A DNA stretch of 64,000 nt from an uncultured Gammaproteobacteria bacterium (GTDB taxonomy: Bacteria > Patescibacteriota > Patescibacteriia > UBA9934 > GWF2-40-263), in NCBI GenBank assembly GCA_964538435.1, contig CAZIDX010000002.1, positions 117,930 through 181,929 of the forward strand, read 5' to 3'. Below the pieces are notes generated by a model. It saw only the letters and a program-made list of their open reading frames with translations, made no database searches and had not been told where the DNA came from. Positions within the stretch are counted from its first letter, which is position 1, and each line of letters starts with the position of its first letter. The translations under genes and the position numbers were made by a program. This document shows positions 2,117-36,950 of the stretch, piece after piece.

Positions 2117-2725
2117 ATGCCCAAACAGACCTGCGAGACACAGTATTGCCTTGATATCAGAGCCTTGAAGCAGCAGGGATTGTTGAGAAATGGGGGCAGT
2201 AGTGGTCTGTACCAATGGGGGTCTGATGGAGAGATCACGTCGAGTATCGGACTTTGGATCGATACGCAGCGTTTAAGGGTACGTCTGCGATATCGATTCA
2301 TAGATCCTTGTGGCAAAGAGTGCGAGTTGGACTATGTGGTCAGCCTCACCACCACCCCATGCTTCTTTGGTGGACGTCGCTACTGGTTCAAGTGTCCAAT
2401 AAACAAAGATGTAACAAAGTGCGATCGCCGTGTGGCCGTGCTCTACATGGGAGACAAGTACTTCGGATGTAGGAGCTGCTACGACCTGACTTATCAGAGC
2501 CAGCAGAAGACGCACACAGGCCGCTGGTCGCTCTTTGGGAGGATCATGGACCTTCAAGACGAGATAGCCAAAGGACACGATCACATCCGCATCAAGCATT
2601 GGCTCGGCCGCCCCACAAAGCGATTCCGAAAGTGGTTGGCCATGAAAAATCGTTACAACCAGCTTTCTCCCCAGCTTAGACCGATGGTGAAAGAAATGGA
2701 GCGTTGCTTGCGTGGGGAGGAGTAG
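2117..2725 (+). CDS. hypothetical Cys-rich protein (CPINKDVTKC ... CRSC) within putative integrated element
   Basis: ORF track, 202 aa, varied composition, no recognisable catalytic motif. Confidence 0.4.
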   Translation: MPKQTCETQYCLDIRALKQQGLLRNGGSSGLYQWGSDGEITSSIGLWIDTQRLRVRLRYRFIDPCGKECELDYVVSLTTTPCFFGGRRYWFKCPINKDVTKCDRRVAVLYMGDKYFGCRSCYDLTYQSQQKTHTGRWSLFGRIMDLQDEIAKGHDHIRIKHWLGRPTKRFRKWLAMKNRYNQLSPQLRPMVKEMERCLRGEE

Positions 2726-3968: not shown

Positions 3969-5582
3969 ATGAAGAACTACGTTATCTATGCTCGTAAATC
4001 TACGGAATCAGAAGATCGGCAGGTGTTGTCGATTGATTCGCAGGTGAACGAGATGAAAGAGACCGCTAAGAAGCTGGATCTCAAGGTTGTGAAGGTTTAC
4101 AAGGAGGCAAAATCAGCCAGTAAGCTTGGAAGAGAGAAATTTGCTGAGATGATGCAGGAGGTCATGGACGGCAAGATCGATGGGATTCTTTGTTGGAAGC
4201 TCGACCGACTGGCTCGCAACCCTATCGACGGTGGCCAGGTCATCTGGGCACTCAAGGATCAGAATTTGATGATCCAAACCCCAGCACAGCTCTACAGTTC
4301 TGAGAAGGAAAACCAGATCATGCTCTACCTCGAATTCGGGATGGCGCAGAAGTACACCGATGATCTTTCCAAAAACGTGAAGCGTGGGAACATGGAGAAA
4401 GCCAATCGTGGTGGTTGGGGTGGTGTGGCTCCCATTGGGTATCTCAATAAGCTTGATGACCACACCATCATGCTGGATCCCGACCGTGCGACTCTGGTTC
4501 GTAAGGCTTGGGAAAAAGTGCTGGACGGCGCTTCACCCGAACAAGCACGTCGATATCTAAACAACGACCTCGGATTTAGAACCGTGAAACGAAAGAAGAC
4601 GGGAGGTAAGCCCCTCTCCTATAGCGGGATGTATCGCATGCTGCGTAATCCGTTTTACTATGGTTTGATCCGTCGCAGACACGACGGGGAGCTCATGGAA
4701 TATATGGGAACGCATGAACCGCTCATTACCGAGGAGGAATTCTGGCGCGTGCAAAAGATTCTTGGCGAGCCAGTTCCTCGTCCTCAGATAAAAGAATTTG
4801 CGTACACAGGCCTCATTCGTTGTCAGGAGTGCGGGTGTCACTTCACGGCGTATGAGATTAGAAAGAAATCTGGGAAGAGCTACACCTACTATCGTTGCAC
4901 TAAACGCAAAGACGGTGTTGAGTGCAGCCAGAGGCAAATCAGCAAGAAGGATCTTGAAAAGCAGATAATGCGGCTTCTGACTGAGATGACCATCCCCACA
5001 CAATTCGCTGACTGGGCAGTGCGTTGGCTTCGGTTCGTTCATGAGAATGAAACGGATAGTCAGTCGTCGCTGCGTGAATCACTTCAAACGGCTTACAACG
5101 ATACCCAGAAACAGATCGATAGGCTCACAGACATCCTGATTCGAGAGCTCATCTCTGAGAAGGAATACAAGAAGCGAAAGAGTGAGCTCATGCAGGAGCG
5201 CTCACGTGTGAGTGCAAAGCTTGCTGACCAAGAACAAGCGGCAGACAACTGGGTGGATCGAATGGAAAAGGCGTTTATGTTCGCCAAGAGTGCACGGGCC
5301 ATGTTCGCAAATGACGAGCGCGTTGAATCACGTCGACGCATTGTTCGCGCTCTAGGATCTAACTTCTCGATTTTGGACAAAAAGCTCAGCTTAGAACTTG
5401 AACCGGTGTGGTCACTCTTCGCCAAACACTCCGAACAGCTCTACAAGGATCTAACTCATGTAAACGTCGACAAAACAGGCATGATCAAAGAAAAAACCAC
5501 AGCTTCTGCTGCTGTGATTTCCTCTTGGCAGGGGCGCTGGGACTCGAACCCAGACGACAGGTTTTGGAGACCTGCATGCTAG
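3969..5582 (+). CDS. large serine recombinase (serine integrase) with resolvase-type catalytic domain, recombinase domain and Cys-rich zinc-ribbon region
   Basis: N-terminal VIYARKSTESEDRQ...SIDSQ catalytic serine motif, central recombinase domain, CQECGCHF...YYRCTKRKDGVECS zinc ribbon, C-terminal coiled-coil-like region. 3' end overlaps tRNA-Trp. Confidence 0.9.
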   Translation: MKNYVIYARKSTESEDRQVLSIDSQVNEMKETAKKLDLKVVKVYKEAKSASKLGREKFAEMMQEVMDGKIDGILCWKLDRLARNPIDGGQVIWALKDQNLMIQTPAQLYSSEKENQIMLYLEFGMAQKYTDDLSKNVKRGNMEKANRGGWGGVAPIGYLNKLDDHTIMLDPDRATLVRKAWEKVLDGASPEQARRYLNNDLGFRTVKRKKTGGKPLSYSGMYRMLRNPFYYGLIRRRHDGELMEYMGTHEPLITEEEFWRVQKILGEPVPRPQIKEFAYTGLIRCQECGCHFTAYEIRKKSGKSYTYYRCTKRKDGVECSQRQISKKDLEKQIMRLLTEMTIPTQFADWAVRWLRFVHENETDSQSSLRESLQTAYNDTQKQIDRLTDILIRELISEKEYKKRKSELMQERSRVSAKLADQEQAADNWVDRMEKAFMFAKSARAMFANDERVESRRRIVRALGSNFSILDKKLSLELEPVWSLFAKHSEQLYKDLTHVNVDKTGMIKEKTTASAAVISSWQGRWDSNPDDRFWRPAC

Positions 5583-14429: not shown

Positions 14430-14473
14430 CCACCCACCTGGGTGGTTTTCAAATTGCACCCCCTGGAGAGGAC

Positions 14474-14505
14474 AAAAAGAAGACACTCGATGTGTCTTCT
14501 TTTTA
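14474..14505. terminator. bidirectional intrinsic terminator
   Basis: AAAAA-gaagacac-tcgat-gtgtcttc-TTTTT. Confidence 0.6.
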
Positions 14506-17147: not shown

Positions 17148-17431
17148 GTTCACCCCTCCTGGAGAGGCCGACGTGAGGCACTCGACGTGCCGACACGTCG
17201 CAGCCCCCACCACCCCACCCATAGGTCCAGGACGCCAAACGGCCGTTCGGGGTAGTGGTTTAAAAACATTTACAACGAGTTTTTAAACCACTACCCCGTG
17301 GCCGCCCAAAACTCCCGCAGCAAGATTCGAGCAAGGTTCGAGCAAAGGCGCAACCAATTAAAGGAGAGGAAGGGAAGGAAAAAAGGTATTAGAAAAGCCC
17401 TCGACCGAAGTCAAAGGCTCGTTAGCATGAC

Positions 17432-19516
17432 CTAGAAACCCGGCCACACCTTGCGAAGCGCCTCCCTCGTTGCATGACCCATCTTCAGGCCCCGCGCAGT
17501 CTCCTTGTCGTACCAGCTTGCCGAAGCAATCTCCACCAGATCCACATCCGCCTCGTACTCGATCAGCACGCGAACCAGGATGTTGGTCACCACGTACGCA
17601 CGCTCCTCACCACCGGGCTTGACCCAGCCAGTGTAGTGCACGCTCACGTTCTCCGGAGCAGGCTCGGGCAGACCCGTCAGGTCCACACCAATCTCCTCAC
17701 CAGCCTCGCGGATCCCCGCACAGAGAGCATCGTGATCTTCAGGATCGATGATGCCACCCACATGCGCGAAGTAGCCCGGATAGGACGTGTCTTCCCCACG
17801 CTCGACCAGCAGCACCCGATCCGTGATCGGATTGTGCAACGTCAGCGTGGCAGCCCTGCGCAGATTCTTGTGGATCGACGGCGGCTCCAGAATCCAGACC
17901 CCTTCGTTCTCGATCCGCTGGACCGTACGGAAGCCTCGAGCCTGGTAGAACTCAGCCACTTCGCAGTTGTCATGTGCAGCCACGAGCACGCCTCGCTGGT
18001 TGATCTGATCCACCAGCTGCTGACCCAGACCCATGCCACGAGCCTCACCGTTGAGGTAGAACGAGTGCCACCCCTCCTCGGTCCTGGCCACCACACCAGC
18101 AATCACATCGCCGGCAAAGATGAGGCTCAGACTCACGCGCCGAGCAAAGTCCGGCCGACCGATCTGCTTCAGGTGGAACAGGTACTCGGACGCAGCTACA
18201 TCCCATTCCTTGCGGATCTGGTTCACAGCATTGAGGTCTCGAAGGTACAGCACATGTCCGTGATTGGTCATCTCGAGCATGAGTGTGTCGCTATCGAGCC
18301 ATGCATCCGAGACATTCGAATTGCATGCCAGTGCCTCGAGAACACTCATGGCCTGCTCGAGCGTACCACACGGGTACGAGAGCCGGGTCTTGGCCATGTT
18401 CTCACCAACCACCCATCCATCATGGAAGTGCAGGCTGGCCGCATGTGCGAACGCTCTGTGGACATGCAGATGCACAGACGAATCGATGCTGGGCTTCTGA
18501 CCCTTCGAGCCCGAGAAGAGCACTTCACGCTTGTCAGGATTCCCGAGCCGCACCGAGATCAGATCGTCCAACTCAAGCTTGCTCTTGTCTGTGGCCCGAG
18601 GGTTCACCAGAAGACTTCCGTCCCCTGGAGCCACTGCCACATTTCCAGACGTATCGCAGAGCAACCCCGCATCCTGAGCAAACTCGATGAGGTCACGCAC
18701 AAGCTGCGCACGTATAGGGCTCGCTTCTGCAAAAACGATCTCAGGAGAACCATCCACTACCTGCACACTCCTGTGCCAGTGGGTCGCGCGGTAGCGAGCC
18801 ATGATCTCCACGATCTGACGCGCCACATCATCGCTGTGTCCCTCGATGCGCACCACGCCACCATCCGGTGTCACCCACCAGATGGGATGCTGTCCGCCAC
18901 CGATCTCCTCGGCCAGGTTCGCAATCGTGCCATTGAGCCGCGCTCGCTTGTTCTGCTTGCGCGCAGCAGCGATCACATCCTGCAGGCTCGAGTTCTTCTG
19001 ACTCAGCAGCTTGAACCCCACGATCAGGCACTCGATCCCGAACTTCTCCCGCCAGGTGTCGAGCACCTTGGGAAGCTTGGGAATGCGCAGCACGAGCTCA
19101 TCACTGCTCGAGGAGATCTTCCCCTCGATCGGATTGAGAAACCCGAAGTCACTGACCGCAGCCGCGCTCATGGCGTATCCCGGCTGACCGTAGGTCTGGA
19201 CTGCCTCGTCAATGGCCTCCAGATACTCCTTGAACGTGCTGAACACGATCACCTTGGCACCCTTGGGAAGATTCGACCGATGCTTGTAAAAAGCGAACTC
19301 GCTGAGAACGAGCACCACCGGAATCCCGCGGCGGGCGAAGTGATGTGCGAACGTCACTGCAAAGCCACCCTTTGCCTTGTTGGCCATGGAACGCATGGCA
19401 TCGACTTGCGCCATGGTTCCACCACCCGTGATCAGGGCGTATGGAGCTTGAAAGGACATGTCTTGACCTCCAGTTGCCAGTGAATCTGGCAAGGCCAGAT
19501 CATAGCAGAATTCCAA
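17432..19516 (-). CDS. 694-aa four-domain fusion: CoaB-like (phosphopantothenate-cysteine ligase family) / class II aldolase-adducin-like / GNAT acetyltransferase / Nudix hydrolase
   Basis: ITGGGTMAQVDAMRSMANKAKGGFA (CoaB signature); SGNVAV...HLHVHRAFAHAASLHFHDG...LEMTNHGHVL (class II aldolase); GMGLGQQLV...AEFYQARGF (GNAT); GGIIDPEDHDALCAGIREAGEEIGV (Nudix box). GC3 very high; the plus-strand ORF 17474..19483 is antisense-like. Confidence 0.75.
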   Translation of the reverse strand: MEFCYDLALPDSLATGGQDMSFQAPYALITGGGTMAQVDAMRSMANKAKGGFAVTFAHHFARRGIPVVLVLSEFAFYKHRSNLPKGAKVIVFSTFKEYLEAIDEAVQTYGQPGYAMSAAAVSDFGFLNPIEGKISSSSDELVLRIPKLPKVLDTWREKFGIECLIVGFKLLSQKNSSLQDVIAAARKQNKRARLNGTIANLAEEIGGGQHPIWWVTPDGGVVRIEGHSDDVARQIVEIMARYRATHWHRSVQVVDGSPEIVFAEASPIRAQLVRDLIEFAQDAGLLCDTSGNVAVAPGDGSLLVNPRATDKSKLELDDLISVRLGNPDKREVLFSGSKGQKPSIDSSVHLHVHRAFAHAASLHFHDGWVVGENMAKTRLSYPCGTLEQAMSVLEALACNSNVSDAWLDSDTLMLEMTNHGHVLYLRDLNAVNQIRKEWDVAASEYLFHLKQIGRPDFARRVSLSLIFAGDVIAGVVARTEEGWHSFYLNGEARGMGLGQQLVDQINQRGVLVAAHDNCEVAEFYQARGFRTVQRIENEGVWILEPPSIHKNLRRAATLTLHNPITDRVLLVERGEDTSYPGYFAHVGGIIDPEDHDALCAGIREAGEEIGVDLTGLPEPAPENVSVHYTGWVKPGGEERAYVVTNILVRVLIEYEADVDLVEIASASWYDKETARGLKMGHATREALRKVWPGF

Positions 19517-22679: not shown

Positions 22680-22755
22680 GCCACCTTAGCTCAGTTGGTA
22701 GAGCACCGGTTTTGTAAACCGTAGGTCGTCGGTTCGAGTCCGACAGGTGGCTCCA
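22680..22755 (+). tRNA. tRNA-Thr (anticodon TGT)
   Basis: GCCACCT acceptor, GCTC-AGTTGGTA-GAGC, anticodon loop TTTGTAA, GTCGG-TTCGAGT-CCGAC, AGGTGGC-T-CCA. Confidence 0.8.
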
Positions 22756-22855
22756 GAAAAACATTCAGAGAAATCTGAGTGTTTTTCTTTTCTAACAAGT
22801 TAATATTTTTTGCCTAAGCCTAAGCAAATTTTGCTTAAATTAGCGTCAGGATCAC

Positions 22856-22884
22856 TTGACAAAAGTGCAAAAATATGCTATGAT
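22856..22884 (+). promoter_or_regulatory. strong sigma70-like promoter TTGACA-N17-TATGAT
   Basis: TTGACA 22856-22861, TATGAT 22879-22884. Confidence 0.55.
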
Positions 22885-22890
22885 GGTACC

Positions 22891-22976
22891 ACAATTGAAC
22901 TGGGGAGAGAGACCAAGTGCCATTCTTGGACCCAAACAATGGCAAAACAAGCAAAATCACCGAAAACCGGTTTTTG
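22891..22976 (+). ncRNA. candidate ~85-nt small RNA beginning CUGGGGAGAGAGACC and ending in an intrinsic terminator
   Basis: Promoter upstream, no ORF, terminator gaaaaccggttttt; 5' motif shared with 32043 element. Confidence 0.4.
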
Positions 22977-23021
22977 TCTAAATTTCTCCTCCAGAAAATA
23001 GATAAAAATCGGTTTTTGTTT

Positions 23022-23155
23022 TTTCAGCGCCCCGTCCAAGACTAAGGAAATTCCTTATTCTCGGACGGATCACCCTGATCCATCGACTCAACTCGCTCCC
23101 TGTCCCCTCGTAGAGGTGGATAAAGCGCTGGCTCCTGAATAAGGGGTCGGAAGGC
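23022..23155 (+). promoter_or_regulatory. structured leader RNA element, copy 1 of 4 (nested hairpins ccgtcc...ggacgg)
   Basis: Shares outer stem CCGTCC/GGACGG, conserved CGACU...CUGYCCCU...AGARGUG...GCGCUGG core and a pre-RBS hairpin with copies 2-4. Inner hairpin sequence differs but pairing is preserved. Confidence 0.5.
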
Positions 23156-23419
23156 ATGTTCGTTATGATGACCCTCGCGCTCACCGCTCGCTTCGCCGTC
23201 AACTTCGCCAAGGGCTTCGGCCTGGTTTCCCTCTTGGTCTTCATGACCTTGATGGTGGTGGGGCTCGAGATGAGCTTCCACGCGGGGACGACCTTGTCCC
23301 TGAAGACCATGGTGGAAGTCTGCACGATCACGGCGCTTCTCGGAGTCCCAGCAGGCTGGTTCGTCGCCTGCTACCCGATCGAAGTACCTCAGGCGAAGAT
23401 CCTGAACACGCCCAACTAG
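23156..23419 (+). CDS. small hydrophobic protein (87 aa, 2-3 TM)
   Basis: ORF track; ATG 7 nt after GGAAGG. Confidence 0.5.
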   Translation: MFVMMTLALTARFAVNFAKGFGLVSLLVFMTLMVVGLEMSFHAGTTLSLKTMVEVCTITALLGVPAGWFVACYPIEVPQAKILNTPN

Positions 23420-23538
23420 GGCCGGTATCTCCTTGCCTTTCGGGAGATGACGAACTACTTAGATAGGCAAAGGGCACGCAACCACCCTAAATCAGGAAGC
23501 ATCCAGCGACGACCTCACCAACGCAATGAGTGAGGTAT

Positions 23539-23662
23539 CCGTCCAAGACGCATAAGCACCCGCTTGTGCCCCTCGGACGGAATATCTCCGTTCGACTTCC
23601 CCGCCCTCTGCCCTGTGAGAAGGTGCAAGGCGCTGGCCCCTACGGGTCGAAAGGCAGCTGCT
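23539..23662 (+). promoter_or_regulatory. structured leader RNA element, copy 2 of 4
   Basis: See copy 1; pre-RBS hairpin ggccc-ctac-gggtc. Confidence 0.5.
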
Positions 23663-23992
23663 ATGAAGCGCGCCCTGATCACCGCCACCAACATCTGGAA
23701 CACCCTGCCATGGTGGATCCAGACACCAGTCATGATCTTCACTATTTACTTCTTGGTCTGCCTGTTCTTGGGACAGATCGGAGTATTCGTGAATGCAAGC
23801 GTCCGAAGCTCCTTCGGGGGAGATTTCTCCCTCATGGACTTTCTGAACTCAGAAGCCACCGCCGTGTTCTACGCAGGCGTGTTGTCCATGGGATGCACCA
23901 TCCTCATGGGCGCTCACGAAATCTTGATGAACTTCGCACGCTACCGCGCGTTCATGAAAGTTTTCGTGGGTCTCGAAGACGAGAACGAATAG
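23663..23992 (+). CDS. small hydrophobic protein (about 110 aa); track ORF 23564 starts inside the leader
   Basis: ATG 23663 after GAAAGG; hydrophobic helices. Confidence 0.5.
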   Translation: MKRALITATNIWNTLPWWIQTPVMIFTIYFLVCLFLGQIGVFVNASVRSSFGGDFSLMDFLNSEATAVFYAGVLSMGCTILMGAHEILMNFARYRAFMKVFVGLEDENE

Positions 23993-24024
23993 ACCCACTG
24001 CCCCGCTACTACGTAACCGGGGCT

Positions 24025-24150
24025 CCGTCCAAAGCGCACAAGCAAATGCTTGTGCCCCTCGGACGGAATATCTCCGTTCGACTTCCCCGCCCTCTGCCCT
24101 GTGAGAAGGTGCAAGGCGCTCGTCCCGTGTGGACGAAAGGCTGACGTGTC
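24025..24150 (+). promoter_or_regulatory. structured leader RNA element, copy 3 of 4
   Basis: Nearly identical to copy 2 over the core; pre-RBS hairpin cgtcc-cgtgt-ggacg (compensatory change). Confidence 0.5.
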
Positions 24151-24426
24151 ATGACCTGGTTCCAGAAATTCAAAATCTTCGCGTGGAAAACATTTTGGAT
24201 TGGCTTCCTGTCTATGAACATGCTATTCGCAAGTTTGGGAGCATTCTTCTGCGTGGACATCTTGGAGTTTGAGCTCATGCTCATCTCCTCCGTCGTCATT
24301 GGCGCCATGATCTTCGGATCACTTGCAGCCACCTTCCCAAAGATCGGGGAGGAGATCTTCTACCTCAAGGAAGAAGACGGAAAGATGGTGGATGCCTACC
24401 CACCCGCAGAAAGCAAGGAACAGTAG
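24151..24426 (+). CDS. small hydrophobic protein (91 aa)
   Basis: ORF track. Confidence 0.5.
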   Translation: MTWFQKFKIFAWKTFWIGFLSMNMLFASLGAFFCVDILEFELMLISSVVIGAMIFGSLAATFPKIGEEIFYLKEEDGKMVDAYPPAESKEQ

Positions 24427-24492
24427 CAAGGATCAGTTGCTTCTCCTCAAGAAAGCAACACCACGACTAGCCTCACCAACGCATGTGAGGCT

Positions 24493-24534
24493 CCGTCCAA
24501 AGCGCATAAGCACCCGCTTGTGCCCCTCGGACGG
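24493..24534 (+). promoter_or_regulatory. structured leader RNA element, copy 4 (5' module only), followed directly by a terminator and no ORF
   Basis: Identical to 5' module of copy 2. Confidence 0.45.
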
Positions 24535-24540
24535 ATCATC

Positions 24541-24574
24541 CAAAAACGAGAAGGCTCAATGCCTTCTCGTTTTT
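24541..24574 (+). terminator. intrinsic terminator
   Basis: acgagaaggc-tcaat-gccttctcgt followed by TTTT. Confidence 0.65.
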
Positions 24575-24622
24575 ATTTCTCACCACCCCTCCAAATAAGT
24601 TTAATTGCCAACTAAAGGTGAG

Positions 24623-24745
24623 TGATTTGTTGTGTTTAGACCATCGCGCAGACAAGCCAGCTTGGTGCCCCGAAGGGGATGGCTTGTCGAGCGTGAGCAG
24701 CGACCGCCGCTGGAGCGGTCGACTGCGAGTCTAAATACAACAATC
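24623..24745. ncRNA. GC-rich structured element closed by a ~17-bp stem (GATTTGTTGTGTTTAGAC ... GTCTAAATACAACAATC) in convergent intergenic region
   Basis: Long terminal inverted repeat enclosing internal hairpins (cccc-gaa-gggg, cgaccgc..gcggtcg); no ORF. Confidence 0.35.
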
Positions 24746-27834: not shown

Positions 27835-29199
27835 CTATCCCAAACGGGCCTTGAACCAAGTCTCGAGCTCGTCAATCGCAACTCGCTCCTGCTCCATGCT
27901 GTCACGGTCACGAATGGTCACAGCTTTGTCCTCAAGTGAGTCAAAGTCAACGGTCACACAATATGGTGTACCGATTTCGTCCTGTCGTCGGTAACGCTTA
28001 CCGATCGATTGTGTTTCGTCATAATCTGCACGCCACTTCCCTGCCAACTTCTCAAACACAGGACGCGCGAACTCCTGAAGCTCTGGCTTTTTTGAAAGCG
28101 GGAGCACAGCGATCTGATACGGAGCCATATGCGGCTTAAAGCGCATCACTTTGCGCACATCACCATTCACTTCCTCTTCATCGTACGCACTCACCAAAAT
28201 CGCCAAAATAGTTCGATCTACTCCAAGTGACGGCTCAACCACATGCGGCACAATCTTTCGCTGAGGGTCATTTGGATCTGTGTACGTAAGATTTTCTCCA
28301 GAATGTTTTTGGTGATTTGAAAGATCAAAATCTGTGCGATACGCCAAGCCCCAAAGCTCCTTTGTTCCAAATGGGAACGTAAATTCAAAGTCGAGCGTTC
28401 GCTTTGAATAATGAGCCAAACTCTCCTGCGGAACTTCTAGCCGATGGAGTCGCTCTGGATCAATACCAATTGAAGTCGCCCACTCTTCCATCCAAGTCGC
28501 CCATGCATCAAAATGCATCTCCCAACCTTCTTCTTCAATAAAGTACTCAATCTCCATCTGCTCAAACTCAAGCGTGCGGAAGATAAAATTCCCAGGCGTA
28601 ATCTCATTACGAAACGCCTTACCAATCTGAGCAATTCCAAACGGCAAACGCTTTCGAGTGGTTGTTTGGACATTCTTAAAATTCACAAAGATGGCCTGAG
28701 CTGTTTCTGGACGCAGATACACCTTCTTGTCCTCAGACCCCATATTCATCTCAAACATCCCGCTAAACTGCCGCGGCTCAGTAAGCTCATTTCCATCAGG
28801 ACTCTTGATTCCTTTTTCCTTGATAATCGCACCCAGCTCTTCCAAGCTCCTTCCGTCCACATTCTCTCCTGTCACTTCTTCAATCAGATGATCTGCTCGA
28901 AAACGCTTATGTGTCACCTTGTCCTCAACCAAAGGGTCGTTGAACGTATCAACATGGCCTGAAGCCTCCCACACACGTGGATTCATCAAAATCGCACCAT
29001 CAAGCCCAACCATATCACTGCGGGACTCAACAACCTGCTTCCACCAATCAGCTTTTAAATTTCTGCGCATCTGCGCCCCCAAAGGACCAAAGTCCCATGC
29101 GTTTGAGAGCCCTCCATAAATAGAAGAACCTGGATACACGAACCCTCGCTGCTTGGCGAGGGTAACGATTTGTTCCATTGATACCTGTTTTTCCGACAT
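27835..29199 (-). CDS. glyQS: glycine--tRNA ligase, alpha2 (class II) type
   Basis: GFVYPGSSIYGGLSNAWDFGPLG and class II aaRS motifs. Confidence 0.85.
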   Translation of the reverse strand: MSEKQVSMEQIVTLAKQRGFVYPGSSIYGGLSNAWDFGPLGAQMRRNLKADWWKQVVESRSDMVGLDGAILMNPRVWEASGHVDTFNDPLVEDKVTHKRFRADHLIEEVTGENVDGRSLEELGAIIKEKGIKSPDGNELTEPRQFSGMFEMNMGSEDKKVYLRPETAQAIFVNFKNVQTTTRKRLPFGIAQIGKAFRNEITPGNFIFRTLEFEQMEIEYFIEEEGWEMHFDAWATWMEEWATSIGIDPERLHRLEVPQESLAHYSKRTLDFEFTFPFGTKELWGLAYRTDFDLSNHQKHSGENLTYTDPNDPQRKIVPHVVEPSLGVDRTILAILVSAYDEEEVNGDVRKVMRFKPHMAPYQIAVLPLSKKPELQEFARPVFEKLAGKWRADYDETQSIGKRYRRQDEIGTPYCVTVDFDSLEDKAVTIRDRDSMEQERVAIDELETWFKARLG

Positions 29200-29200
29200 A

Positions 29201-29755
29201 CTACACCGTCATGATTTCTTCTTCTTTTGCTTTACCAATTTCCCCTGCCTCATTATCAAACTCCTTTGTGAGCTTATCGATCTCATCAAGAAGCTTGAAC
29301 TTTTCGTCTTCGCTAATCTCTTTTGCTTTCTCAAGCCCATTCACCTCATCGCGCAAACCTTCTCGCACACCGCGCACACGAATACGCGCATCCTCAACCT
29401 TATCCTTCACAATCTTCACGATCTGAACACGATTCTCTTCTGTCATCTGAGGAATCATGATACGGATCACTTGTCCATCAACAACAGGACTAAGCCCAAT
29501 CCCTGAATCACGAATGGCCTTTTCAATTGCTTGAAGCGTTCCCTTATCCCAAGGCTCAATCACAAGCGTCTTTGAATCTGGCACCTGAACAGAAGCAAGT
29601 CCTTTGATCTCCATTTTTGAGTCATACACCTCAACGGGAATATCCTCAACCAACGCAGGATTTGCACGCCCAGTACGAAGAGCAGAAAGTTCTTTATGTA
29701 GCCGATCAATTGCGGCTGTATACTCAGGTTTCTTTTGTGTCAAAATTGCATGCAT
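29201..29755 (-). CDS. frr: ribosome recycling factor
   Basis: 184 aa, typical RRF sequence (ALRTGRANPALVEDI...). Confidence 0.9.
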   Translation of the reverse strand: MHAILTQKKPEYTAAIDRLHKELSALRTGRANPALVEDIPVEVYDSKMEIKGLASVQVPDSKTLVIEPWDKGTLQAIEKAIRDSGIGLSPVVDGQVIRIMIPQMTEENRVQIVKIVKDKVEDARIRVRGVREGLRDEVNGLEKAKEISEDEKFKLLDEIDKLTKEFDNEAGEIGKAKEEEIMTV

Positions 29756-30825: not shown

Positions 30826-31776
30826 TTAAAAAGACAAGAACAAATGTTCTAAGGCTAAATGTGGATTGACATTATGGTGAGCAGCGCGGCGCACAGCATT
30901 CAAACGACCAAGAGCATCAATAATCTGATCATCCGTCTTTGCTACACCTGCTTCGTGCATGCAAAGCTCCTCGCAACCGATAAAACGCAGCAGCCCGTCT
31001 CGCAAAACCTCTTCTGCAGAATCCAGATGAGTGCTTAAGAGCCCGCGTTTATTCACCTCGCTCTTTGGGACAAGATCCGTGGCTGCGCGAAGACGCTCAG
31101 GCACACTTGATCCAAACGCAAGCTTCATTGCTTCAACACCTGTGGTCCGTTTTGCGTAAAACTCACTGTCTTTAAGTAGTCGAAGAGCGATCCCAGGCCG
31201 TCCAAGCGATTGAGCACTAGCAGGCTTTGCATCAGCTCGAGAAAAACCTTTCTTCACAACTCCTTCAACAATATCTTCCTGAGAGACAGGATAAAACCGA
31301 ATCACCTGACAGCGCGAAGCAATCGTCTCAAGCACAGACTGAGTAGACGGTGCGCGCAAGAACAGAAGTGTTTGCCCCTTTGGCTCTTCCAGTGTTTTCA
31401 AAAGTGCATTAGCCGCAGCATTGCTCATCTTATCTGCCTCCTCAATAACCGCTGCCTTCCACCCCCCTGCCATGGCACTCATCGAAAGCGAACGCGTGAG
31501 CTCACGAATCTGCTCAACCGAGACCTGAGTTTTGAGCTTCTCGGTTTTTTTGTCTTCAAGTCTGCGCACCCACGACATATCCGGAATTGCATCAAACGAA
31601 CCACTACCTTCAAAGAGCGCTTGAAGAAGCGCTTTAATAATCGTTGTTCGTCCAACCCCCTCTGCACCTACAAATAAAAACGCATGCGGAAGCGTATTAT
31701 TCGCCATCATCCGCTCCAAAATCGTCAAAATCCTCCCATGACCAATAACTCCCGCAAAGGGTTTTTGCATACGCAC
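30826..31776 (-). CDS. holB: DNA polymerase III delta-prime subunit
   Basis: AAA+ clamp loader fold, GAEGVGRTT Walker A, LEEPK sensor region. Confidence 0.8.
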   Translation of the reverse strand: MRMQKPFAGVIGHGRILTILERMMANNTLPHAFLFVGAEGVGRTTIIKALLQALFEGSGSFDAIPDMSWVRRLEDKKTEKLKTQVSVEQIRELTRSLSMSAMAGGWKAAVIEEADKMSNAAANALLKTLEEPKGQTLLFLRAPSTQSVLETIASRCQVIRFYPVSQEDIVEGVVKKGFSRADAKPASAQSLGRPGIALRLLKDSEFYAKRTTGVEAMKLAFGSSVPERLRAATDLVPKSEVNKRGLLSTHLDSAEEVLRDGLLRFIGCEELCMHEAGVAKTDDQIIDALGRLNAVRRAAHHNVNPHLALEHLFLSF

Positions 31777-31962
31777 CCATTATAGCATGAAAAACAAAGC
31801 AAACCTGTGGAACCACTTAAGTGACGATCGGCACCTAAGTGACCCCTTGTTCAAATGAGAAAAAAATAACTTTGGGACAAAAGTCAAAGTGAGTAAACAG
31901 AATTGCGGACATTCTTTTTTGCTAATTTTAGCCAAATCTTCTCCAATTCCCACTCTTCAGTC

Positions 31963-31991
31963 TTGACAAAATTGACAAAATGTGGTAGACT
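31963..31991 (+). promoter_or_regulatory. promoter TTGACA-N17-TAGACT with extended -10 TG
   Basis: TTGACA 31963-31968, tgTAGACT 31983-31991. Confidence 0.45.
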
Positions 31992-32042
31992 GTGCCTACA
32001 ACATGAGAAGAAAGAAATTGCTTCTCGTACACTACAACTTAG

Positions 32043-32172
32043 ATCTCTGGGGAGAGAGCCGATAAGACCACGGTAAATGGTCTTCAACAGGAATCTAGCA
32101 AAAGCTAGAAAGCCGGTTGTTGTATGTATCTGACTCACTCCACAGAAAGATGCATTCAACAACCGGCTTTTT
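32043..32172 (+). ncRNA. sRNA/attenuator unit beginning CUGGGGAGAGAG and ending in a terminator hairpin (agccggttgttg ... caacaaccggct + TTTTT)
   Basis: Homologous 5' motif and AAUGG element to sRNA at 22891; 12-bp terminator stem. Confidence 0.4.
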
Positions 32173-32318
32173 CTTATAGAAACATAGGGCGTTCATGATT
32201 GAGACCAATTTTGGTGAACGGGATGTCAGCGCCAGAGGCGTACTGAAACGTACGTCGACAAGCTGACAGGGACCCGTGAGCCAAAAGTGGGCCGATCAGG
32301 AATGCGCTTATATCCAGT

Positions 32319-32745
32319 CTCATGGAGGAGAGAGAAAACCGTCCGAGGAACTTCTTTATGAAGAACCTTGGCGGCGATCACTGAATGGTTCCACTCGGTT
32401 TAACCCGCTTGCGGGTCCTAGCTGACTGAATCCATACGCCAAGTGATCACGAATGATACTCGAGCTTGCTCAAGTCACTCATTCACCCCTACCCCTCCAG
32501 GAGACTGCATATAACTTCCAACCGGGAAATTCGGAGGAGAGAGAAAACCCGTTCGATTGATCTCAACAGAGTGACATCGACGGTGAACATCAAATGGTTC
32601 GACTCGGCACGTCTGACTCGATCCATACTACCGATGTTCAAGATGTACACCAGCCCTCGGGCAGGTCACTACAATTTTCTTCTCCGGTTTCCCCGGCCGG
32701 ACCTGATCAGTCCATTCCAAGCCGAGGGGTGCACCCAAACCGTTC
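32319..32745 (+). repeat. tandem duplication of a ~214-nt structured unit (starts 32319 and 32533), each beginning GGAGGAGAGAGAAAACC and containing AAUGGUUCSACUCGG and GAWYCCAUAC blocks
   Basis: Blocks align at constant spacing between the two units. Confidence 0.5.
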
Positions 32746-32760
32746 GAGGAGGACTCCACA

Positions 32761-33029
32761 TGAACACCCGCACCGCCACCACGACCGCCATCTCCGCCAC
32801 CTCCGTGACCATGAGCGACTGGCTCGCCGGTGACGTCGAAGATTTCAGCCTCATCGAGGCCGACATCGACGACATCGACACCGACGACTTCCACGCCACG
32901 ACCCTGGAGGAGAGCGTCGAGATCATCGCGGCCCTGGGCACCATCGCCCTGACCGCGGTGCTGATCGCCAGCACCTTCCCCAACATCACCGAGGCCGTCA
33001 CCGGCGGCCTGAGCTTCATCCTCTTCTAG
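32761..33029 (+). CDS. small protein (89 aa), acidic N-terminal half and hydrophobic C-terminal half
   Basis: ATG 32761 after GGAGGA; high GC3. Confidence 0.4.
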
Positions 33030-33474
33030 AGGGAAGCTCGCCTGCTACTAGGTGCAGGCAACGGGGGCGACGCTAACGCAATTGCGTCGCCTATCCCAAT
33101 GAGAACTGGATCCATGCTTCCAGTGCTCATCAGGATACCGATCCTTACAAAGAATGATCTCCGCGACGCACGATTGAATCTCGATCCTGCATCGCGGAAA
33201 TCATCAAAGCAAATATCCAATCAGATCAAAAAGACTGCACACCTAAACACTGTTAACAAGAAACCTAATAGCGAAAGCGAACTGGAATCAAGTTAATAAG
33301 AATAGGCAGAGAAGTGAAGGGGGTGAAAAGGAGCTTCGGCTCCCAACCACAACCAGATCATCTCGCGTGCACCTTTCTGAACTGGATGGAGGAAGCTGAA
33401 GCTGATGGGCGTGGTGCCCACCCCGCAACAGTAGAGTAGGGCACCAGCCCAAAACAAACAGGCTGCCCAAAACA

Positions 33475-35148
33475 GTGGGTAGCACAGCGCACTGGAGTAC
33501 ACCCATGACCACCTCCCCCGCCAACCTGACCTCCCCCGTCTGCACCGACGCCCAGGGCCGCGACTGGACCTCCGACGAGGCCAAGGCCCGCCGCGCCATG
33601 AAGGCCTGGGCGCGTCTCAACGGTCGCCGCCAGGAAGAGCCGAAGATTCGCGAGCTCCAGGCGTCCGAGGGCGGTCTGGGCTGGCACACCATCGGCGACG
33701 AGAACTGCTTCGACCTCGAGATCGACATGAACGACCGCGGCTGGTTCGAGATCGACCAGTTCGCCACCGACGAGGTCGTGTCCAACCTGATGGGCGTCGA
33801 GACCAGCACCAACATCGACCTGGCCACCGCCCTGACCGACGAGATCGTCCGCGACGAGGCCTGCCTCGACGCGATCCGCGTGCTCATCGACACCGTGGGC
33901 TACGCCCAGGCCATGTCCAAGCTCGAGGAGATCATCACGATCACCAAGGGCGAGGACGAGGACGGCCCCTACGTCGACATCGACATGGGTGACTTCCCGG
34001 CCATGGTCGAGGCATACCGCACGGTCGCGACCGACCCCCTGGTCACCCAGTGCGACATCCCGATCTGCTGGCTCGTCGGCTTCAACGGCGCTCCTCTGGG
34101 CGTCAACGGCCTGGCCACCATCGAGCAGGCCATCGACAACGCCGAAGAGCTCGACATCGACTGGCGCCTCTGGATCGAGGGCGACGAGGACGAGCAGTGC
34201 ACCGCCATGCACGTCGTCACCGAGCTCGCGTCCCGGCTGCAGGGCAAGGTCAAGCGCGTCCGCGCCCAGGCCGAGCGCGCCGAGCGTCAGGCCAAGGCCC
34301 AGCGCAAGGCCGCCGAGCGCGCCGAGCGTCAGGCCAAGGCCCAGCGCAAGGCCGCCGAGCGCGAGACCACCCAGAAGGTCGAGACCCCCAAGGTCGAGAC
34401 CGACTGGATGGGTCGCGTCCAGGGCCCCAGCGGCGAAGCCATGTTCCAGTGCACCGGCCGCCGGTACGTCCCGCCCGCCACCAACGACCAGAGCCCGTTC
34501 GGCGCCCAGGGCCCGACCGAGGGCACGCACGAGCTGTGCCAGGTCAAGGGCTCGGCCGACTACATGTACGTCGGCTCCCTGGACTCCATGTGGCGGCGTC
34601 AGAACCGCAACGTGGTCGAGGTCTGGCACCTGGCCAACCATGCGCTCTGCCCGAGCTGCATGGAGCGGATCTCCCGGTCCGTGGCCCGGAAGAACGGTGG
34701 CAACCGCCCGTTCTTCCAGACCGTCAGCGAGGCGATCGACCTCATCGAGGCCGAGGAGCGCAAGCTCGAGAACAACAACACGTTCTTGCGCACGCCCGGC
34801 ATGGACTCGTCCATGCGCGCCTCCCGGTTCGCCGTCAAGGTGGACTGGGCCGCAGACGACGCGTGGAAGACCCTGGCCAATCGCGCACCGAACCTGTCCG
34901 GCGCCCAGTGGGCGGCCCTGCGCCACTCGCTCCAGCTGGGCACCCTGGACCTGACGGTGCTCACGCGCCAGATCGTCCCAGGCTGGGAAGTCGACGGCGA
35001 CGCAGGCTACATCGGCTACTGGCTGATCTGCAAGCTCGAGCGCGACCAGGTCGCGTGGCAGAACCGCCAGCGCGAGCGCAGCGCCCGCAAGAACGCGCGC
35101 AACCGCCACGGCCGCGGCCAGTCGCACGAAGCGCCCTGGATGCGCTAG
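33475..35148 (+). CDS. hypothetical protein, very G+C-rich, with internal coiled-coil tandem repeat and Cys pairs
   Basis: Plus frame has high GC3 and protein-like composition; the longer minus ORF 33358..35397 is L/A/G/R/V-rich antisense. Confidence 0.6.
   Translation: MGSTAHWSTPMTTSPANLTSPVCTDAQGRDWTSDEAKARRAMKAWARLNGRRQEEPKIRELQASEGGLGWHTIGDENCFDLEIDMNDRGWFEIDQFATDEVVSNLMGVETSTNIDLATALTDEIVRDEACLDAIRVLIDTVGYAQAMSKLEEIITITKGEDEDGPYVDIDMGDFPAMVEAYRTVATDPLVTQCDIPICWLVGFNGAPLGVNGLATIEQAIDNAEELDIDWRLWIEGDEDEQCTAMHVVTELASRLQGKVKRVRAQAERAERQAKAQRKAAERAERQAKAQRKAAERETTQKVETPKVETDWMGRVQGPSGEAMFQCTGRRYVPPATNDQSPFGAQGPTEGTHELCQVKGSADYMYVGSLDSMWRRQNRNVVEVWHLANHALCPSCMERISRSVARKNGGNRPFFQTVSEAIDLIEAEERKLENNNTFLRTPGMDSSMRASRFAVKVDWAADDAWKTLANRAPNLSGAQWAALRHSLQLGTLDLTVLTRQIVPGWEVDGDAGYIGYWLICKLERDQVAWQNRQRERSARKNARNRHGRGQSHEAPWMR
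34279..34362 (+). repeat. perfect 42-bp tandem repeat x2 inside CDS (encodes AERQAKAQRKAAER twice)
   Basis: gccgagcgtcaggccaaggcccagcgcaaggccgccgagcgc repeated exactly. Confidence 0.7.
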
Positions 35149-35519
35149 TGCGACCGCAGGCATGAGGCTCCCTGCATGAAAAGAAGCCCAAAGGGTACTC
35201 CTAAACCCTCCACCTGCTTGAAGGTGGTTAATCCGAGAGGATGGAGTTGAGCAGCCGCAAGCTTCTCGTAAAACCGAAACCGCCCCTGTACGCAACAGGG
35301 AGGACGGGCCGATCGCGTAAAAAACGATCGGCCATCCCTCAGAGAGGTTTAGACTCATGAAACAGTCTAGAAACCTCTGACCGGATAACCAGAACAACCA
35401 AGTCCGATTTTGTCACGGACTTTAGACCTACCAAACAAAAACCCATCCACCGACAAGGTGGAGATCAGTCTGGCCTTTAGCAAGCCAGAACGACAAACTG
35501 ATCAGATCCTTGAAGGAGG

Positions 35520-36254
35520 ATGCTCATGTCCCATCGCAACACCAGCCCCTTCGGCGCCCAGTCCAACCCCAACCGCCGTCGCAACCGCCGCCCCCGCCGC
35601 CCGACCTTCGAGATCTGCCTCAAGGCCCTCGCGGTGTACACGCGGTTCATCTTCATGAGCCGTCTCCCCCACCCGGCCGACGCCAGCGACGAGGCCAAGA
35701 ACACCCTGTTCACCCAGGCCACGGACTCCTACGTCCCCTGGGCCAAGGGCTCCTACGCCTCCGCCAACGGCACCCGCCTGTGGGCCCGCGGCATCGCGCG
35801 CGTGGACGGCACCGAGGACAAGCTCCAGGCCATGCTCGACGAGATCGAGAAGCCCGAGCTCGTGCGCGTCAAGCGCGGCAACGCCCTGACCACCAAGGTC
35901 AACGGCAAGCCCGTACCCTTGGCCGACCGCCAGGTGTACGTCCTCAAGGTCGCCGGCATGGCCCTGCTGCTGGGTTGCCACCCCAACAGCATCACCCCCA
36001 CCAACACCAAGTCCGCCTTCGCCAAGGACGACTTGGTGGGCCCCCAGCGGATCGGCACCCGCGCCAGCCAGGAACTCATCCAGCGCATCTTCCCGAGCGC
36101 CATGCTGGCCGAGTTCAACGCCGAGTTCGAGGCAGCGGCCCCCAAGGCCAAGGCCCAGAACAAGGTCGAGGACGGCGCCGAGGTCACCGAGCTCCCCACC
36201 CCGGCCCCGGCCGACACCTCCGTCAAGCCCGCTCCCGCGGCCGAGGCCTGCTAG
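35520..36254 (+). CDS. hypothetical protein, very G+C-rich; shares SPFGAQ motif with upstream neighbour
   Basis: Protein-like frame; ORF 35510..36280 in the other frame is R/P/G-rich artefact. Confidence 0.55.
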   Translation: MLMSHRNTSPFGAQSNPNRRRNRRPRRPTFEICLKALAVYTRFIFMSRLPHPADASDEAKNTLFTQATDSYVPWAKGSYASANGTRLWARGIARVDGTEDKLQAMLDEIEKPELVRVKRGNALTTKVNGKPVPLADRQVYVLKVAGMALLLGCHPNSITPTNTKSAFAKDDLVGPQRIGTRASQELIQRIFPSAMLAEFNAEFEAAAPKAKAQNKVEDGAEVTELPTPAPADTSVKPAPAAEAC

Positions 36255-36490
36255 CATGGCTGGCTAGCAAAGCGAGGTGAAACGCGCTTAAAGGGGACGG
36301 CGCAGTGAAAGGAGAAATCCTGGATCTGCGCCGGCCCCTGAGGCAAACGAAAACGCAAGACCTGGCCAAACGCAAACAGCCAGGTCCGATCGTCAAAGCT
36401 GAGAAGTGTCTCACTTCTCGCCTCTGATGATCGCCAAGCGCGATTAAACGTTTGACCAATAAACCCTCTCCCCTTATTGGTCAGACATGC

Positions 36491-36519
36491 AAAAAACACG
36501 TGTATCCCACGTGTTTTTT
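36491..36519. terminator. bidirectional intrinsic terminator
   Basis: AAAAAA-cacgtg-tatccc-acgtg-TTTTTT. Confidence 0.6.
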
Positions 36520-36803
36520 GTTTGTATTTACTGATGACTTTTTTTCGCACCTACGAAAATTTGTCATCTTTTTCTATTCGTGTTTCTTAAATGAAACAAA
36601 AAACTTTGCAAGTTTCCAAATTTGTCAGTTCATTGACAAACCTTTGTCACTTGATATTGACAGTATGCTTAGTGTATGATATCCTCTATAGTCGTCTCGT
36701 GGTGGGATGACGTGGTTCCCGGCCTACCGGGAAAAAGAGAGTGACGCAGCAAAATAAAGAACTGTCAGGAGACTGCGCGTTGACTCTCGAAGGAGTTGGT
36801 GTG

Positions 36804-36950
36804 ATGAAGGAACTGATGCAAGGCCTTATGGCCATGCATGCCGCAGAGGCCACTCAAGCCTCACGCTACAATGGCATGAACACTGAAGACGACGTTGCAC
36901 GAGACCCGTTCAGCGTCACACCTTCGATGCACTGCTTTGGTGGCGATTAG
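36804..36950 (+). CDS. candidate small protein (48 aa) MKELMQGLMAMHAAEATQASRYNGMNTEDDVARDPFSVTPSMHCFGGD
   Basis: RBS GAAGGAG 9 nt upstream; preceded by hairpin-containing leader. Confidence 0.3.
   Translation: MKELMQGLMAMHAAEATQASRYNGMNTEDDVARDPFSVTPSMHCFGGD

Follow-up and report, generated by a model that had tools for sequence, protein, structure and literature searches.

What is encoded in the roughly 760 nucleotides (nt) that separate a promoter at position 31963 from an 89-amino-acid (aa) open reading frame (ORF) at 32760–33029 in a 64,000-nt stretch of contig CAZIDX010000002.1 (the window, i.e., the whole stretch of DNA that was analysed), and how might this leader act on the genes behind it? 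The leader sits at the start of the largest (32.2–36.4 kb) of the high-G+C islands in the window, the others spanning 17–20 kb and 23–24.6 kb. An initial annotation of the locus had placed a promoter at 31963, which is present, and had described a long structured leader, a description that holds: folding of the 781 nt that start at 32000 gives a z-score of -12.9, and two repeated domains (units 1 and 2) match a common covariance model, R1, with E-values of the order of 1e-38 or below. The leader is almost certainly a conserved functional RNA. Its three modules, a terminator module (unit 0) followed by units 1 and 2, have a purine strand in common, and the RNA constitutes a structured family that was previously undescribed; its general kind, a structured cis-regulatory leader or orphan riboswitch candidate, is known. 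The coordinates of all features are collected in Table 1.

Two covarying domains in tandem

The tandem duplication reported for the leader is real, with a period of 209 nt rather than the 214 nt first proposed, as defined by the exact 17-mer GGAGGAGAGAGAAAACC at 32324 and 32533. In addition, the blocks AATGGTTCSACTCGG and CTGACT..ATCCATAC are collinear in both copies. The two units, each a domain of ~170 nt, share 59.5% identity overall, and in the minimum-free-energy (MFE) fold they adopt a common architecture, in which a purine/pyrimidine closing helix (P1) surrounds three hairpins (P2 to P4). Differing sequences build matching stems: where one unit uses GAUCACU/AGUGAUC, the other has UGAACAUC/GAUGUUCA. 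The P1 of each unit sets the invariant GGAGGAGAGAG opposite a CU-rich strand, P3 holds the conserved AAUGGUU..CU.GG / CU.AC..AUCCAUAC, and a conserved GUCACU follows P4. Furthermore, the P3 of unit 1 bears an extra 20-nt hairpin at its tip. A candidate upstream ORF starting from the AUG of 'AUGGAGGAG' in unit 1 was rejected; it has no Shine–Dalgarno (SD) sequence, varies in length, and its substitutions track base pairs rather than codon positions.

R1 was derived from a MAFFT alignment of five units folded by RNAalifold, which yielded 46 base pairs, 18 of them with compensatory changes. In a set of 14 distinct copies, pairing is kept in 92.3% of cells, versus 33–46% when the pairing partners are slid by 1–3 columns, and double changes occur at 27 of the 46 pairs. 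With three more distant copies added from two Uhrbacteria metagenome-assembled genomes (MAGs), the 17 distinct copies give 92.2% of cells paired, versus 34–46% in the slid controls, with double (compensatory) changes at 34/46 pairs; these values were reached by none of 500 shuffles. Strong covariation backs P2, P4, and the two halves of P3 individually, and the likeness between copies is thus not confined to the purine run. P2 is missing in two copies and hence dispensable. The transcribed strand is fixed by an invariant G–U pair and by a reverse-strand score of just 25 bits. The 17 copies therefore share a conserved, structured, covarying domain of the type expected of a riboswitch aptamer. 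No further units were found in the spacers around the 557-aa and 244-aa ORFs of the window.

Relatives of the leader were recovered along several routes. A metagenome scan with the pattern GGAGAGAG-N40-60-AATGGTT-N15-45-ATCCATAC gave 15 matches, against ~9 expected by chance on our own estimate; on inspection 12 were chance matches, and the true homologues are the contig L088, its duplicate L092, and L095. Pattern scans of viral contigs gave no match. The synteny of L088 is that of the window, with a lipoprotein gene, holB, the promoter, the CUGGGGAGAGAGCC module and its terminator, two units, an SD sequence, and a short ORF, and it continues with a divergent version of the 557-aa protein, then an arginine-rich 242-aa protein. 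L095 has one unit, located between genes in an operon of small membrane proteins. Further contigs were reached via close homologues of the HolB protein and then searched with R1. A tandem pair divergent from holB is present in L088, L098, L100–L104, L105, and L108, the relatives with long enough contigs; one of L100–L104 belongs to Candidatus Uhrbacteria CG_4_9_14_3_um_filter_50_9. Three contigs end inside the leader, L099 with one complete unit, L106 with one complete and one truncated unit, and L107 with one truncated unit. HolB identity across the relatives recovered ranges from 49 to 78% (67% in L098, 57% in L099, 55% in L100–L104, L105, and L106, 54% in L107, and 49% in L108), and the R1 E-values range from ~1e-5 for truncated copies to 1e-45. 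Orthologous copies are thus present in at least eight other genomes.

Single unit copies also occur in other Uhrbacteria operons. The leader of L024 opens with a full unit that has CGGGGAGAGAG at its head; the ORF behind this unit has an arginine-rich N-terminus. In L005 a unit lies ahead of a glycine-rich membrane protein. A genome set assembled around glycyl-tRNA synthetase (GlyRS) served as both negative and positive control, and gave no close synteny (best species-representative identity 58%, these representatives being mostly from the candidate phyla radiation (CPR)/Patescibacteria). Among its 80 GlyRS loci of other species (1.35 Mb), R1 or the motif was found only in the two Uhrbacteria MAGs, and ~78 other genomes, mostly of other CPR lineages, gave no covariance-model match. 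On these sequence searches, the RNA family appears so far confined to Uhrbacteria, a group of very small bacteria from groundwater.

Most orthologues of unit 1 are 62–83% identical to the unit 1 of the window, and most orthologues of unit 2 are 66–79% identical to its unit 2, whereas the two units inside a genome share ~60% identity. Because the units resemble their orthologues more than each other, the duplication is old and both copies have been maintained. The nucleotide identity of the leader, ~70–77%, is on a par with that of the flanking housekeeping genes, and the first ORF has no detectable nucleotide similarity. Copies at several loci, together with other repeated intergenic hairpins in the islands, could also suggest selfish or neutral repeats similar to miniature inverted-repeat transposable elements (MITE) or repetitive extragenic palindromes (REP), generic mRNA-stabilising hairpins, or a chance likeness in the purine run. 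Such an origin is scarcely credible, since within-genome copies that are ~60% identical still keep 92% of cells paired via compensatory changes, the orthologous position is kept down to 49% HolB identity with just two copies in 64 kb, and conserved unpaired nucleotides and strand-specific G–U pairs point to selection on a specific fold. The likeness also far exceeds the purine run, and the independent MAFFT/RNAalifold result argues against an artefact of model fitting in the alignment.

The initial annotation had found only partial matches to consensus sequences of known riboswitches, and a search of Rfam likewise places the RNA in no known family. At gathering thresholds, all 4227 models of Rfam 15 (including glycine, TPP, guanidine-I, and yybP-ykoY) give only four tRNAs in the window. 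At E <= 10, the segments 31900–33500 and 22750–24700 give just chance-level unrelated matches, mostly to miRNA and snoRNA models and far below gathering. Meanwhile, blastn of the leader against phage and plasmid collections gave no match, and literature searches found no description of the RNA.

Table 1. Positions of the leader modules, the second unit-0 locus, the operon genes, and neighbouring genes in the window (R1 and R2, covariance models; GC3, G+C content at third codon positions)
Feature	Position	Strand	Details
Promoter of second locus	22856–22884	+	TTGACA-17-TATGAT, extended -10
Second unit-0 copy	22893–23024	+	R2: 43 bits, E = 7e-8, full model length
GlyRS	27835–29199	-	
Ribosome recycling factor	29201–29755	-	
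holB-like DNA polymerase III delta' gene	30826–31776	-	
Sigma-70-type promoter	31963–31991	+	TTGACA-17-TAGACT, extended -10 TG, TTGACA duplicated
5'-terminal hairpin AUGAGAAG/CUUCUCGU, then conserved ACACUACAA	32003–32028	+	MFE helix list
Unit 0, attenuator module	32040–32178	+	R2: 132 bits, E = 2.9e-28
Module X, accessory hairpin tipped by GUACUGAAACGUAC	32199–32297	+	Inserted; outside core leader; helices in MFE fold
Unit 1, four-helix domain	32318–32505	+	R1: 154.9 bits, E = 1.8e-38
Unit 1 helices			P1 UGGAGG/CCUCCA; P2 32339–32374; P3 32376–32448; P4 32451–32484
Unit 2, four-helix domain	32527–32697	+	R1: 176.5 bits, E = 4e-44
Unit 2 helices			P1 UCGGAGGAGAGA (32531–32542) with UUUCUUCUCCGG (32676–32687); P2 32549–32583; P3 32584–32640; P4 32644–32673
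Putative expression platform	32676–32752	+	CU-rich P1 3' strand 32676–32687, hairpin, SD GAGGAGG 32746–32752
First ORF, 89 aa	32760–33029	+	GC3 0.97
Second ORF, up to 557 aa (start uncertain)	33475–35148	+	GC3 0.95; diverged counterpart in L088
Third ORF, 242–244 aa, arginine-rich N-terminus	35520–36254	+	GC3 0.97
Operon-end terminator	36489–36521	+	

The terminator module and its second copy

Unit 0 consists, in order, of the invariant UGGGGAGAGAG (32048–32058), a hairpin (32064–32084), a conserved CAACA, a second hairpin (32094–32109), and an intrinsic terminator (32109–32170) with its U-run. A terminator hairpin of 12 bp had been annotated here; the hairpin exists, and its arms (32109–32131 and 32148–32170) are 23 nt long and 91% complementary, followed by TTTTTCTT. 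The U-run after the hairpin reads UUUUUCUU, completing the form of an intrinsic-terminator attenuator. From UGGGGAGAGAG through the terminator, unit 0 is kept across all relatives, and an alignment of nine sequences shows covariation in the small hairpin and in the stem of the terminator, 15 of 27 pairs having compensatory changes. The promoter block TCTTGACAnnnTTGACAAAAT.TG.TA..T is also found in L088, L098, L099, L100, L105, L107, and L108, and the relatives show an equivalent 5'-terminal hairpin with ACACUACAA. In the relatives with the unit-0 region on the contig, the terminator lies ~13–70 nt ahead of unit 1. The longer spacer after the terminator in the window and L107 results from inserted copies of module X, which is lacking in L088 and L098 and present in L107 as two copies with covarying stems; by sequence comparison, module X behaves as a movable RNA module. 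In L108, a further UGGGGAGAGAG occurs at another locus (2442–2631, plus strand) upstream of a 319-aa ORFan, with no R2 match.

The predicted transcription start is near 31998, and no further promoter-like site was found on the plus strand between 31991 and 36651. As no promoter-like site lies between the unit-0 terminator and the genes, the downstream genes depend on read-through; unit 0 is therefore a 5' attenuator and not a separate gene. This differs from the initial annotation, in which unit 0 was an sRNA (small RNA) unit initiated by GGGGAGAGAG, since the motif lies ~49 nt downstream of the predicted start at the 32-kb locus and ~8 nt downstream at the 22.9-kb locus. The proposal of an RNA family sharing the GGGGAGAGAG / GGAGGAGAGAG motif is nevertheless borne out.

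The second member of this family is the element at 22.9 kb. CTGGGGAGAGAG, at 32047 in the leader, has its sole further copy in the 64 kb at 22900, and R2, the unit-0 covariance model trained without the 22.9-kb copy, recovers that copy over its full length (Table 1). All other R2 matches in the window have E >= 0.096, save for reverse-strand matches at the unit-0 terminators, and no other terminator of the window was matched. The copy comprises CUGGGGAGAGAG, a hairpin, and a terminator hairpin at 22961–23018, the loop of which, UUUCUCCUCCAG, is complementary to the motif. On this sequence evidence, the 22.9-kb element is a true homologue of unit 0, as had been suggested for an RNA at 22891. 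That RNA had been taken as a free transcript of ~85 nt; it extends to 23024, its real terminator being the hairpin at 22961–23018, and leads an operon. The AAUGG once counted as an element common to both RNAs belongs to an unrelated local hairpin. The copy heads the operon at 23.0–24.6 kb, which encodes three small hydrophobic ORFs, and the sole promoter-like site of this operon lies upstream of the module.

A second repeated intergenic element, of 118 nt, was observed in the same operon at 23538–23655 and 24024–24141 (89% identical), with a partial copy at 24485–24535 and a hairpin at 23032–23068. It opens with a CCGUCC...GGACGG hairpin and precedes each small hydrophobic ORF. These repeats were considered as diverged units and rejected, R1 giving no match with filters off. 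Two further sites, 14458 and 17160, had been listed as carrying related motifs; both read CCTGGAGAGG, with no match to YTGGRGAGAG, R1, or R2. At 14452–14500 and 17155–17200, CCCCUGGAGAGG is followed by a hairpin just past two gene ends, and these sites may represent an unrelated terminator-associated motif or chance.

Each unit-0 copy has its own strong promoter and strong terminator, so that a terminated RNA of ~135–180 nt should accumulate. Unit 0 and the 22.9-kb element might then be free-standing trans-acting sRNAs, with the CU-rich terminator loop as a seed that would pair with ribosome-binding sites of the GGAGG type, among them the GA strands in units 1 and 2. These loops are indeed complementary to GA-rich, SD-like sequences, and terminated riboswitch leaders that act in trans have a precedent in SreA and SreB of Listeria. 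However, both copies lie directly ahead of co-oriented operons without a promoter of their own, which makes a leader role necessary whatever else they do, and the module is not an independent unit, its terminator lying within ~13–30 nt of unit 1 in several relatives. A purely trans-acting role is thus improbable, although the terminated product may act in trans in addition to its leader role.

Folds of transcripts ending before the 3' arm of the terminator suggest an alternative structure. In these, CAACA pairs with UUGUUG of the terminator 5' arm in 9/9 sequences, while a pairing between the CU-rich loop of the terminator and the GA motif forms in 5/9. The energy of the duplex between GA motif and loop falls within the top 2–5% of the genomic background in 7/9 sequences. 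An antiterminator formed by the CAACA/UUGUUG and GA/loop pairings is therefore plausible in these models.

Predicted control of the operon

Taken together, the modules suggest a cis-acting leader with two-level control, termination in unit 0 and competition for the SD sequence in unit 2, a reading held with slightly better than even confidence from the predicted folds. Unit 0 would be a conditional terminator, such that transcripts from the sole promoter would stop at 32170 unless the RNA adopted the alternative fold, with CAACA bound to UUGUUG of the terminator 5' arm and the GA motif to the CU-rich loop. At the second level, the P1 5' strand of unit 2 (GGAGGAGAGAG) would mimic the SD sequence and compete with the real one, located 7 nt upstream of the AUG, for the CUUCUCC strand. 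With unit 2 folded, P1 would hold CUUCUCC and leave the SD free; with P1 open, CUUCUCC would pair with the SD and block initiation at the first ORF, resulting in a translational ON switch. Such competition would explain the invariant, SD-like 5' strand of P1. When this strand is left out, the MFE folds of 6/8 homologues show CUUCUCC paired to the SD. At most loci, the units are situated in the 5' leader. In relatives with contigs that extend far enough, unit 2 is followed, at a short and similar distance, by a hairpin, an SD, and a 40–89-aa ORF of very high GC3 without conserved sequence. A pairing of the start codon with 32191–32197, present in the MFE fold of the window, was discarded, as it is not conserved and that segment is missing in L088 and L098.

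The two levels might also be coupled. In a relay, the purine strands of units 0, 1, and 2 (GA0, GA1, GA2) and the real SD would alternate with the pyrimidine strands (the terminator loop, CU1, CU2), giving the whole 760-nt leader two registers. In the first register, each GA would pair with its own CU, so that the domains would be folded, the terminator bypassed, and the SD free; in the second, each CU would pair with the next GA downstream, and the SD would be blocked. A single event at the 5' end, for instance ligand or protein binding, would thereby propagate down the leader and couple termination to translation initiation. Such a relay is quite unlikely.

Several observations weigh against two-level control by the leader. 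Complementarity between purine and pyrimidine strands arises readily, the alternative folds come from energy prediction alone, and the GA-to-loop pairing is weak in 2/9 sequences. P1 is backed mainly by the invariance of GGAGGAGAGAG, with few compensatory changes and 78–79% pairing. Position is a further difficulty: in L024, a second full unit (5047–5205, minus strand) lies at the 3' end of an operon, followed by a terminator only and no ORF, and SD control explains neither this copy nor the intergenic unit of L095. In addition, unit 0 scores just 7.6 bits with R1; its description as a degenerate unit akin to units 1 and 2 is a conjecture drawn from the motif common to them and from L024, where GGGGAGAGAG heads a full unit. 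Finally, riboswitches normally control a coherent, conserved gene set, and the genes downstream of the leader are unrelated ORFans that differ between species, with no coherent set pointing to a ligand.

These genes form a 4.3-kb operon. The first ORF, annotated as an 89-aa protein with an acidic front half and a hydrophobic tail, conforms to that description: residues 1–55 include 14 D/E, the whole protein has a single K/R, and its C-terminal tail is hydrophobic; its GC3 indicates that it is coding. A homologue search with it recovered no protein but itself, encoded on a Logan contig of 983 nt that is identical to the window; the organism occurs in the sequencing runs SRR8146440 and SRR8146441. 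Homologous small acidic ORFs with the same leader, which the initial annotation had thought worth seeking, were not found, the first ORF being wholly different between relatives. The 557-aa ORF had no match in a word-indexed search of 5.8 billion proteins, and the third ORF has just two distant homologues among 1.84 billion representative proteins, with counterparts in L088 and L108. No family was assigned to the island proteins by Pfam, PHROG, PADLOC, or NCBIfam, and no RNA-binding domain was detected; a borderline AbiLii match (E = 0.01) was disregarded. AlphaFold of the 242-aa protein alone gave an unusable model, with a predicted local distance difference test (pLDDT) score of 40.

The conserved junctions and internal loops of the domains could be explained by a small-molecule or ion ligand, the RNA then being an orphan tandem riboswitch, or by an RNA-binding protein dedicated to it, and ligand sensing as such appears rather doubtful. 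Under the second option, the units would be sites for the arginine-rich protein of the operon or for a host factor, with possible roles in autoregulation, in the assembly of a ribonucleoprotein, or in antitermination similar to that of lambda N/nut. In the long helix P3, sequence is conserved along with pairing, a pattern typical of sites bound by protein, and each of the four operons recovered in full (those of the window, L088, L108, and L024) has an ORF with an arginine-rich N-terminus. Such sites would also tolerate intergenic and 3' positions of the unit, and the terminator of the leader needs read-through. However, the arginine-rich proteins of the window and L024 resemble each other in composition, with no homology detected beyond that, the unit of L005 has no arginine-rich ORF nearby, and the domain searches reveal no RNA-binding domain in any island protein. 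A dedicated binding protein is unlikely.

Units in leaders and between genes of operons with long, highly structured spacers, together with the L024 unit just upstream of a terminator, also recall cis-acting processive antitermination elements of the HK022 put or Bacillus EAR type, in which the folded units would modify RNA polymerase to pass the hairpins and terminators of the operon. The strongest terminator belongs to unit 0, and units 1 and 2, being downstream of it, cannot act on it; no Rfam model is matched, so there is no likeness to a curated antitermination RNA, and this mode of action is improbable as well. Two-level control in cis remains the preferred reading. As possibilities akin to the relay, the unit may be the aptamer of a new riboswitch class, or the RNA partner of an arginine-rich protein that marks lineage-specific, fast-evolving CPR operons of extreme GC3.

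Several side observations concern the composition and spacers of these operons. The GC3 of the island ORFs is 0.95–0.97 (32760–33029, 33475–35148, and 35520–36254, and also 23156–24426) and reaches 1.00 in L108, with high-GC3 ORFs also noted in L088, L102, and L105. The GC3 of housekeeping genes is near 0.58, and the spacers between island ORFs have ~50% G+C. The island ORFans diverge far faster than the flanking genes, and the chromosomal position of the operon is nonetheless kept across species. The intergenic segments 33085–33213, 35302–35386, and 36167–36520 are 73–91% conserved with relatives, and the coding parts are not. A hairpin with GCUAACGC (~33059–33098) recurs after ORFs in L088, L098, and L095. 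Inside the 557-aa ORF, a perfect 42-nt tandem repeat of 2.2 copies (34270–34363) encodes AERAERQAKAQRKA repeats.

Setting and comparison with known systems

The window has a G+C content of ~46% and bacterial housekeeping genes aboard, several of which flank the leader (Table 1). The closest named relatives of its holB are Candidatus Uhrbacteria, in keeping with a source among Uhrbacteria-like Patescibacteria, and exact look-ups of GlyRS and the 557-aa protein gave no matching record. In the island at 17–20 kb, a 694-aa fusion protein (17432–19516, minus strand) combines DFP (pantothenate-metabolism flavoprotein C-terminal), class II aldolase, GNAT, and NUDIX domains. Beyond the operon terminator (36651–36685 and 36804–36950), a further double TTGACA promoter is followed by a structured leader of ~120 nt and a 48-aa ORF.

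CPR bacteria are uncultured, with very small genomes and few regulators that can be recognised, and to our knowledge very few regulatory RNAs have come from this radiation. A leader as conserved as its housekeeping neighbours, in front of ORFans that change almost beyond recognition, indicates a function at the RNA level that is worth keeping, and it ties this function to an unexplained class of genes, which may take part in interaction with a host or the environment. Should the domain bind a ligand, it would represent a riboswitch class that is new and tandem in architecture; should its partner be the arginine-rich protein, it would define a new RNA–protein system. In either case, R1 and R2 provide a handle for surveying such operons across Patescibacteria.

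Among known systems, the tandem-aptamer riboswitches (glycine, NAD+-I or nadA motif, and the c-di-AMP riboswitch ydaO with its internal pseudo-symmetry) likewise place two homologous domains serially in a 5' leader. They also resemble the present RNA in their conserved junction and internal-loop nucleotides and in a P1 3' strand that, by prediction in the present RNA, could pair with the SD, the logic of a classical expression platform; a terminator-bearing module upstream of the tandem domains is a further feature of this leader. The differences are significant: no Rfam riboswitch is matched, the domains have four helices each and a length of ~170 nt, the downstream genes are non-conserved ORFans and form no metabolic or transport regulon, and some copies are not ahead of a gene.

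Likeness is also found with the orphan 'ornate' RNAs (raiA, OLE, ROOL, GOLLD, and HEARO), which are large, multi-helix, strongly covarying, and lineage-restricted, and were found without a function. Their Rfam models miss the window, however, and the present RNA is embedded in mRNAs as a leader or spacer and built from repeated modules. In the case of intrinsic-terminator attenuators and Listeria SreA/SreB, the resemblance lies in unit 0, where a promoter, a conserved 5' domain, and a hairpin with a U-run precede the genes and an antiterminator is predicted, whereas the 5' domain of unit 0 fits no T-box, leader peptide, or known aptamer. Similarly, the processive antitermination RNAs (HK022 putL/putR and EAR) differ from this leader in that its units 1 and 2 come after the main terminator and that it has no similarity to any Rfam family, and share with it a structured RNA located in the leaders or between the genes of long operons.

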